DNA from: Erysipelotrichaceae bacterium
GTDB lineage: Bacteria; Bacillota_I; Bacilli_A; Erysipelotrichales; Coprobacillaceae
Reading direction: 5' to 3'
Assembly (NCBI GenBank): GCA_028698185.1
Contig: JAQVDW010000035.1
Location: 1 to 16,643, forward strand
Length of the DNA stretch: 16,643 nt
Positions 15,308-16,643 of the stretch are shown piece by piece; the stretch's first letter is position 1; each line of letters begins with the position of its first letter. The notes beneath the pieces were generated by a model. It had not been told where the DNA came from, did no database searches, and was given only the letters and a program-made list of their open reading frames with translations. Both the position numbers and the translations under genes were made by a program.

Positions 15308-16527
15308 CTAACCGTTGGAAAGGTCAGCCCCGTTGGTGGCGATCACTTTCTTATACCATTCAAAGCTTTTCTTTTTGCGTCTTTGATAAGTGCCGTTGTT
15401 CAGGTCATCAAGATCCACATGGATGAATCCGTAGCGTTTGGTCATCTGTGATGTCGAAGCGGATACGATATCGATGCAACCCCATGAAGTGTAACCCATG
15501 CACTCGACCCCCTGCTCAATTGCCAGGGCGATCTGTTCGAAATGGGTTTTGAAGTATTCGATCCGGTAATCATCCAGGATTGTCCCATCTGACTCAACTT
15601 TGTCGTAAGCCCCGATTCCGTTTTCCACAATCCACAATGGCAGACCATAACGGTCATACAGGTCGATCATAGCCACCCGAAGACCCTTGGGATCAACCTG
15701 CCAGCCCCATTCACTGATCGGAAGATAGGGGTTTTTAACTCCGGTCACCAGATTGCCTCCGACCTTTTCCCTTTGGTTGGCGTTGACGCTTTGGACCATC
15801 GACATATAGTAGCTAAACGAGAGGAAGTCGACTGTGTAGCTTTTGAGAATTGCCTCGTCGCCTTCGGCCATCTCGATATCCATATTGTTGTTTTTGAGAT
15901 AAATGAGAACATGTTTCGGGTATTTGCCCAGAATCTGGACATCGCTGTAGAAGAAGTTGTTGCGGTTGTCGGCCTGCGCCAGCAGGATGTCGTCTGGATT
16001 GCAGGTTTCCGGGTATGTCAAAGTCTTGGTGATCATGCACCCCACTTGCGATCCGGGAATGATCTCATGAGCGTATTTGGTCGCCAGGGCACTGGCTACG
16101 AACTGGTGGTGCAATGCCTGATAGATGACTTTTTCCGCTTCCTTTTTGCTTGAGTATTTTTCCTCGACAATCCCCATCGTGGTGAAGCTGTGGCGAAATA
16201 CCGAGTCGATCTCATTGAATGTCAGCCAGTATTTAACCAGGTGCGAGTAGCGCTTGAAGCACACTTTGGCGTATCTGACAAAAAAACCGATCAGCTCGCG
16301 CGACGCCCAACCGTCATATTTGTCTACCAGGTGCAGTGGCATCTCATAGTGCGACAATGTCACCAGCGGCTCGATATTGCTGTCTTTTAGCTCCTTGAAC
16401 AGGCCATCATAGAACTTCAGGCCAGCCTCGTTGGGCTCGAGCTCGTCCCCGTTAGGGAATATTCTCGCCCAGGCAATCGAAACTCGCAGGGTCTTGAAGC
16501 CCATTTCCTTGAACAGGGCAATATCCT
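15308..16527 (-). CDS. bglA: GH1 6-phospho-beta-glucosidase, 3' exon (from about codon 86 to the stop); the 5' exon lies beyond an intron outside the window
   Basis: Collinear with E. coli BglA-type GH1 enzymes from (E)[11 protein letters not shown] to the C-terminus. The acid/base motif LTFNEI and the nucleophile motif IVENGIG are intact. The track's Met at 16504 is the internal M of EMGFK. The frame continues upstream to 16527 and is then closed by a TAG formed across the intron junction. Confidence 0.9.
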
Positions 16528-16643
16528 ATAGCGATAGGTAAGATTTTGATGTCATCTCCATCTTTTCCCCCGCTCCACACCGTGCATGCGACTTTCACCG
16601 CACACGGCGTTCCATCTAATTCTCTTTTAATCAATTTCAGTTA
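16528..16643 (-). mobile_element. Group II intron, 3' terminal part (end of domain IV, domain V at 16610..16577, domain VI at 16574..16530, 3' end at 16528); the rest lies beyond the right edge
   Basis: Domain V is ACGCCGTGTGCGGTGAAAGTCGCATGCACGGTGT: 34 nt, GAAA loop, 2-nt bulge and a basal CGC triad containing a G.U pair. Domain VI is a helix with a bulged A at 16535, 7 nt before the 3' end, which reads ...CGCTAT. The intron is on the same strand as the interrupted GH1 gene. Confidence 0.85.

Follow-up and report, generated by a model that had tools for sequence, protein, structure and literature searches.

The 16,643-nt contig JAQVDW010000035.1 of assembly GCA_028698185.1 (Erysipelotrichaceae bacterium), referred to in its whole length as the window, ends inside a group II intron, and the gene that adjoins this intron encodes the greater part of a glycoside hydrolase family 1 (GH1) 6-phospho-β-glucosidase. 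The features of the window described below are encoded on the minus strand. The last 116 nt of the window represent the intron's 3′ end and carry all marks of such an end. The Rfam model RF00029, which describes domains V and VI, covers positions 16612..16528 over its full length with a significant score of 61.4 bits (E = 3e-10; gathering score 40). Domain V is a 34-nt hairpin at 16577..16610 (ACGCCGUGUGCGGUGAAAGUCGCAUGCACGGUGU) with a CGC triad, a GAAA loop and a 2-nt bulge on the 3′ strand, as seen in the sequence, in the minimum free energy (MFE) fold and in the RF00029 alignment. Its core 32-mer has exact matches in at least 120 loci of Bacillota in a genome scan. A linker of two nucleotides (GG) leads to domain VI, a helix at 16530..16574 defined by RF00029, the MFE fold and covariation, from which the putative branch-point A bulges out at 16535, with the last intron base lying 7 nt further on. 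AU forms the intron end (16528..16529), and the end of the RF00029 alignment together with the joining of the exons places the 3′ splice site between 16528 and 16527. Domain VI was compared among 59 distinct sequences from introns with an identical domain V. In this set the pairs 4-46, 5-45, 6-44, 15-35 and 16-34 each occur as three to four Watson-Crick types, with several pairs of the helix displaying all four; 59/59 sequences have the bulged A, and 58/59 end with AU. An earlier sequence-only reading of the window had proposed precisely this domain V and, for domain VI, an AT end and the A at 16535 as the bulged base; both proposals hold.

Upstream of domain V, at 16627..16643 and within domain IV, lie the last five codons and the stop codon of the intron-encoded protein (...L-T-E-I-D-stop). 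This is the visible part of the reverse transcriptase (RT)/maturase open reading frame (ORF) of this copy, and here the window is cut. A second assembly of the locus (L001) runs 4 nt beyond the window end and reads N-L-T-E-I-D-stop, and the closest sister copy of the intron, L026, encodes ...NLTEIN-stop at the equivalent place.

Directly downstream of the splice site the GH1 3′ exon occupies 15308..16527 (1220 nt). It consists of 2 nt of a Glu codon, 405 codons and a stop codon at 15310..15308, and its frame starts with AG GAT ATT GCC... at 16527, completing the Glu of a conserved Y-K-E-D block. The exon product matches PF00232 (Glyco_hydro_1) with 353 bits over profile positions 63-452, and its best matches in the Protein Data Bank (PDB) are 6-phospho-β-glucosidases, which align from about residue 71-83 onward (e.g., 6wgd from residue 71, E = 6e-156). 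In the unspliced DNA a TAG at 16528..16526 closes the frame, and for this reason the mechanically called ORF begins at an internal Met at 16504. Intron-free orthologues of 486-491 aa read ...FYHRYKE and then continue with the same block as the 3′ exon, which places the junction after the first base of the Glu codon. The earlier claims that an intron in the orientation of the gene splits this conserved codon, that the exon starts at 16527 and that the TAG formed across the junction ends the unspliced frame are thereby confirmed. Only 4 nt downstream of the GH1 stop codon follows a gene for an EamA-family transporter (14467..15303).

The assembly break inside the intron explains why exon 1 is absent from the window. 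Contig JAQVBS010000041.1 of the metagenome-assembled genome (MAG) GCA_028690185.1 (Erysipelotrichaceae bacterium at NCBI) stops with the very sequence that closes the window, and at least 15 independent assemblies in ENA, Logan and NCBI with an identical GH1 or EamA neighbour end 19-120 nt inside the intron, as is typical of a repeat. The missing 5′ half was located by synteny. In the genome of the closest intron-free orthologue, P0002 (82% identical; L166), the gene order is RpiR regulator, GH1 and EamA, and a search with the RpiR protein of this genome led to the protein P0249, encoded on JAQVBS010000039.1 of the same MAG as JAQVBS010000041.1. P0249 is present on 17 contigs, and the 10 that were examined stem from the same samples or from sister samples (ERZ926433, SRR29553506, SRR35396600, SRR22315505, SRR32459427, SRR24962750 and the SRR275447xx series). 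In 10/10 of these, a 91-aa “GH1” gene comes after RpiR, and the contig stops shortly beyond it. The DNA of exon 1 reads ATG...GGC ATT GAT TTC TAT CAC CGC TAC AAA G|GTGCGAAACGTTTCTCTATAAATGC, i.e., 82 codons and one G, and the intron boundary on these contigs (L167-L176) is ...CGC TAC AAA G|GTGCGAAACG with the canonical GUGCG start. The sequence-only reading had anticipated a 5′ exon of about 85 codons ending in ...TAYAARG as well as a GUGYG intron start; the exon found has 82 codons and ends in TAC AAA G, and GUGCG follows directly on JAQVBS010000039.1. The 10 contigs end 45-593 nt into the intron. The Rfam model RF02004 for domains D1-D4 of group II introns matches the longest of them, L176, with 109.7 bits and the MAG contig L168 with 82.8 bits. 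The assemblies differ at intron position 102 by a G/A polymorphism in the loop GUCAUGUU of the 5′ part (L167 vs L168/L176), as would fit several intron copies or variants in the population.

Joining exon 1 (247 nt) and 16527..15308 in silico results in 1467 nt, i.e., 488 codons and a stop codon. The joined protein and P0002 share 81% identity in a gap-free alignment of 485 residues, and the motifs TFNE with the acid/base Glu and VENG with the nucleophile Glu are intact, as the earlier reading had stated for the catalytic motifs. Once joined, the host gene is a full-length GH1 6-phospho-β-glucosidase, its substrate being assigned by homology. The predicted ligated-exon junction is ...TACAAAG|AGGATATT, and the 30-mer across it is CACCGCTACAAAGAGGATATTGCCCTGTTC.

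Several other routes to the 5′ half gave no result. The 91-aa exon-1 product was not returned by a protein search for which the first 83 aa of the nearest orthologue served as query, nor was it among 120 GH1 fragments screened for read-through into an intron. The odd tails inspected among these fragments look like artefacts, one being derived from an adapter and others being apparently frameshifted. The best N-terminal match, P0121 (L164, 1100..1140), comes from an AT-rich organism and carries in its GH1 gene a frameshift directly after YKEDIA, three codons past the YKED motif (GAT ATA GCT TAA TTT AAA); it is unrelated and contains no intron, the agreement in position being coincidental. As the word-indexed protein search with an 80%-identical query overlooked a product present on 17 contigs, its negatives for short fragments are weak. 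A metagenome scan with GTGCGAAACGTTTCCYTATAA, which is kept in L026 and the further sister copy L035, yielded 28 relatives, none of them in GH1; it missed the window locus due to a T instead of a C at intron position 15 of the latter. For the GH1 protein itself the next best match after a fragment of 100% identity is only 82% identical, and an intron-free allele from the host species was not present in the protein collection searched.

The two halves of the intron have close relatives elsewhere. The closest one, L026 (3406..5995, minus strand, on the complete Coprobacillaceae chromosome OY776328.1), is 2590 nt long with GUGCG...AU ends and matches the 5′ part of the window-locus intron (L176) at 96% identity over 593 nt and its 3′ tail at 93%. 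It is also inserted in a GH1 gene, at a different site, i.e., ...ACC TTC AAC G|intron|AG ATC AAC, splitting the acid/base Glu of TFN|E. A copy on the same chromosome, L053, is 99.8% identical to L026 and occupies the same site in another GH1 paralogue. The ORF of L026 starts after about 700 nt of intron, and the protein, rebuilt across a 1-nt frameshift, has 597 aa with RT/X/HNH organisation and matches TIGR04416 (345 bits), RVT_1 and, at its C-terminus, HNH (PF01844). L026 and L053 share this frameshift, which lies within the RT domain (GTPQG|GVLSPLL). It either predates the second insertion, or the intron was spread between the paralogues through recombination of DNA, or a protein provided in trans was used. 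The third copy, L035 (3712..4692, minus strand, in a Bacilli MAG), is an ORF-less intron of 981 nt with 79% identity, inserted in GH1 at ...AAC CAA TAT GAA G|GA GGC within the ANQYE|G motif. It retains a remnant of the HNH region (...GTEDYDNLLIVHKDV...), showing that the ORF-less form arose by internal deletion.

The choice of these sites can be followed in the exon-binding sequences (EBS) and the intron-binding sequences (IBS) of the exons. EBS1 of the window-locus intron, CUUUGU in L176, pairs with IBS1 ACAAAG, the last six bases of exon 1, in 6/6 Watson-Crick pairs, and this pairing covaries with the target, being CGUUGA-UCAACG in L026 and CUUCGU-AUGAAG in L035. Another variable loop lies upstream of EBS1 at a distance of about 60 nt and has in each copy 4-5 bp of complementarity to its own exon at positions -13..-7 (-13..-10 at the window locus), which makes it a candidate EBS2. 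The three GH1 insertion sites have almost no flanking sequence in common by which the encoded protein could recognise them. Between L176 and L026 there are 24 differences, 7 of which are located within the 16 nt of both EBS loops (hypergeometric P about 6e-7, calculated with limits of the EBS block that were set after the alignment had been inspected). A pair of introns that is 96% identical, sits at two different GH1 codons and differs mainly in the EBS loops thus represents a clean natural example of retargeting. Moreover, nearly all ORF-inserted copies of the family (L016-L163) are in codon phase 1 with a G at exon position -1, pairing with the 5′ base of EBS1, which is always C. The phase-1 bias may simply reflect the G-rich first codon positions.

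Taken together, the element in which the window ends is very probably a mobile group II intron splitting, in sense orientation and in phase 1, the Glu codon of the YKED block of an otherwise intact GH1 gene of an uncultured Erysipelotrichaceae bacterium. The gene order would be RpiR, GH1 exon 1 (247 nt), intron, GH1 exon 2 (1220 nt) and EamA. Both contigs would be adjacent in the genome, and the unassembled middle would carry an ORF for an RT/maturase/HNH protein as do the sister copies. A change in its exon-binding loops, with subsequent retrohoming or retrotransposition, would have brought the intron to the YKED site. It would splice through the branch-point A with the help of the maturase, and the enzyme would be made from the spliced mRNA only, the unspliced RNA yielding a 91-aa stub ending in ...YKGAKRFSINA-stop. 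That the short-read assemblies break on both sides of the intron is most likely due to near-identical copies elsewhere in the genome or community.

Several points weigh against this interpretation. Splicing, and the dependence of GH1 expression on it, are deduced from the sequence. The middle of about 1.9 kb is unassembled and could be ORF-less as in L035 or carry a broken ORF as in L026 and L053, and none of the assemblies examined contains a contig that joins both intron halves. The variation between samples is of little help, the populations being almost clonal and selection on the split gene not measurable. The retrospective definition of the EBS block was mentioned above, and the assignment of the intron to a class, discussed below, is based on hallmark features and not on a protein phylogeny, so that the intron is best termed class B-like.

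The most serious alternative is a real but dead intron, whose ribozyme ends look intact but which no longer splices, e.g., for lack of a working maturase; the GH1 gene would then be a recent pseudogene with exons too young to have decayed. Most bacterial copies are truncated or inactivated (PMC4424553). The closest sisters have a frameshifted RT domain, L035 lost its ORF altogether, and the unassembled middle of the window-locus copy leaves room for a similar defect. Furthermore, exon 2 of one sample (L004) differs by two apparently non-synonymous and one synonymous change. However, the 488 codons are free of stops and frameshifts with intact catalytic motifs, all visible conserved ribozyme elements are intact, and EBS1 matches the site in all six positions. 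Every assembly of the species seen carries the intron, on the 5′ side in the 10 examined of 17 contigs and on the 3′ side in at least 15, with no intron-free allele, and a maturase could be provided by other copies, the existence of which is suggested by the assembly breaks. A dead intron is therefore considered unlikely.

A further alternative follows from the same gap between the contigs. As the intron is unspanned by any contig examined and is apparently multi-copy, offering substrates for recombination, the two halves might not be adjacent, and the GH1 gene would then be permanently split by recombination between intron copies or be expressed by trans-splicing. This is very improbable. The order RpiR-GH1-EamA is conserved and each half adjoins the neighbour that is predicted by it, the 5′ part and the 3′ tail match one and the same sister intron, and assembly breaks induced by repeats are a simpler account of the gap.

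With regard to its class, the intron most likely belongs to class B with a IIB RNA structure, as judged from its hallmarks. A CGC in place of the AGC triad is a hallmark of class B (PMC4024640). Among the bacterial classes only ML, CL and B have an endonuclease (En) domain, and the classes C, D, E and F are devoid of it (Zimmerly and Semper 2015; PMC4424553). The insertion sites of class C introns lie behind terminators or attC sites, and Firmicutes are the only hosts of class B (PMC4424553). The host MAG is assigned to the Erysipelotrichaceae and the sister copies are found in Coprobacillaceae and Bacilli, i.e., in Firmicutes. Two adjacent stem-loops at intron nt 12-63 show compensatory changes among three copies and may correspond to the published class B feature. 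The sequence-only reading had deduced class C from the CGC triad, and this suggestion did not hold: a class C (IIC) intron that unusually entered an ORF is practically negligible as an explanation. In its favour are the CGC triad, which is equally a class B hallmark, and the RT domain of L026, which in the fingers and palm, the only parts compared, is slightly closer to IIC RTs in the PDB (173 bits) than to a IIB RT (157 bits) and LtrA (139 bits), a difference that does not decide the class. Against it stand the HNH En domain of the sister proteins, which all class C proteins lack (PMC4424553), an EBS1 of 6 bp with a candidate EBS2, a sister intron of 2.59 kb with about 700 nt ahead of its ORF and, within the 60 nt upstream of the insertion, weak folds only and no terminator- or attC-like stem-loop. 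With the class C reading unsupported, the apparent conflict between class C homing and an insertion inside an ORF disappears.

The closest known systems are accordingly the class B introns, such as B.a.I2 of Bacillus anthracis, B.c.I4 of Bacillus cereus and the ancestor of C.te.I1 of Clostridium tetani. The window-locus intron shares with them the CGC triad, the HNH En (as seen in the sister copies), a host among the Firmicutes, putatively the two stem-loops close to the 5′ end, site-specific homing predicted to be guided by EBS1/EBS2, the GUGCG...AU boundaries and the bulged A in domain VI. Unlike these examples, it resides in a chromosomal catabolic GH1 gene and not in mobile DNA, and it has neither a domain VII 3′ extension nor a shifted splice site. 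In its sense insertion into a conserved ORF whose expression would need splicing it resembles Ll.LtrB, the model of a homing intron with En, which belongs to class ML (IIA) and resides in the ltrB relaxase gene of Lactococcus lactis. The intron length of 2.5-2.6 kb and the protein of roughly 600 aa with RT/X/D/En organisation, as judged from the sister copy L026, and the choice of the target by EBS-IBS pairing are also similar. However, the RNA of Ll.LtrB has an AGC triad and is of type IIA, LtrA is a distant match (139 bits, as given above), and its host gene is located on a conjugative element. Cyanobacterial CL and ML introns and the proliferating introns of Thermosynechococcus elongatus are residents of housekeeping genes. 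As in those cases, a conserved cellular gene is interrupted, efficient splicing would be needed and related copies have spread via changes in their EBS. The introns of housekeeping genes belong to the CL or ML lineages and are mostly found in cyanobacteria (PMC4424553), whereas the intron described here is of class B type, occurs in Erysipelotrichales and has 3 of about 10 sites of its clade in one enzyme family. With the class C introns O.i.I1, B.h.I1 and GsI-IIC it shares the CGC triad and a similar RT domain sequence; unlike it, those introns are without En, insert after terminator/attC stem-loops and have a short IBS1 and no EBS2.

The distribution of the family shows how far the link to GH1 extends. 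Among the at least 120 loci with the domain V 32-mer, GH1 adjoins the intron in L026, L053 and L035 only, as far as the matches listed are concerned. Metagenome relatives of 79-83% identity have flanks that appear adhesin-like (L155, L162, L152), epimerase-like (L143) or of conjugation type (L153, L163), as read from translations and motifs without a family search, and conjugation genes, recognised by motifs in the translated flanks, are also among the apparent hosts of the wider family. An association with GH1 that is exclusive to one sublineage, which had been considered, was therefore withdrawn, since copies equally close (79-83%) lie in adhesin-, epimerase- and conjugation-type genes. GH1 nevertheless accounts for about 3/10 distinct sites in the clade of at least 79% identity and for at most about 1% of a genome, so that GH1 sites are strongly enriched in the clade, though not exclusive.

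Two further groups of hosts deserve mention. L115 and L056 both have an identical domain V 32-mer. As judged from motifs in the translated 3′ exons, the gene apparently split by L115 is nrdD-like, with the insertion close to its glycyl-radical C-terminus, and that split by L056 encodes a recG-like helicase; they would be further insertions into core genes. L155, L162 and L152 (81-82% identical) and, by its 3′ tail, L057 lie at different positions in large, repeat-rich proteins that resemble Gram-positive adhesins or pilins. Next to GH1, this would be another gene family in which the introns occupy several sites.

The 96%-identical copies at YK|E and TFN|E and the third relative at ANQYE|G raise the idea, regarded as improbable, that the clustering in GH1 is no sampling accident and that the lineage prefers to move from site to site within the gene family of its host. 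As a possible route, the excised intron would reverse-splice ectopically into the mRNA of a GH1 gene close by, after which cDNA would be synthesised and recombine. RNA-level gain of introns by ectopic reverse splicing was proposed long ago and has rarely been documented. Alternatively, it is a possibility that selection maintains the introns as splicing-dependent switches on β-glucoside catabolism.

Further genes of the window are of interest in their own right. At 9253..10260 (minus strand) two adjacent ORFs of 157 aa and 176 aa both match the permease family ArsP_1, of which a full-length gene is found at 13384..14388 (minus strand); the two short ORFs may represent a permease that is split or consists of two parts. 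Towards the opposite end of the window, 2303..4921 (minus strand) encodes an 872-aa LevR-like sigma-54 activator with phosphotransferase system (PTS) regulation (PRD) and EIIA-Man domains, which suggests PTS-linked sugar regulation in the neighbourhood.

Full-text searches of the literature brought up no GH1 or phospho-β-glucosidase gene with a natural group II intron, the matches inspected or recognised concerning engineered targetrons or being unrelated. Most bacterial group II introns are located in mobile or intergenic DNA, where their splicing is of little matter to the host (PMC4424553), in agreement with the earlier view that such a host gene is uncommon. The intron that splits GH1 is thus in an uncommon location, yet it is a known kind of element. 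For genome annotation the consequence is that a “family 1 glycosylhydrolase” fragment of 398-402 aa and a 91-aa stub are reported and the intact gene is missed. The natural pair of retargeted introns illustrates the principle behind engineered targetrons. Finally, as the enzyme would be obtainable only if the intron splices, the locus would represent a natural case of host metabolism that hangs on the activity of a ribozyme.

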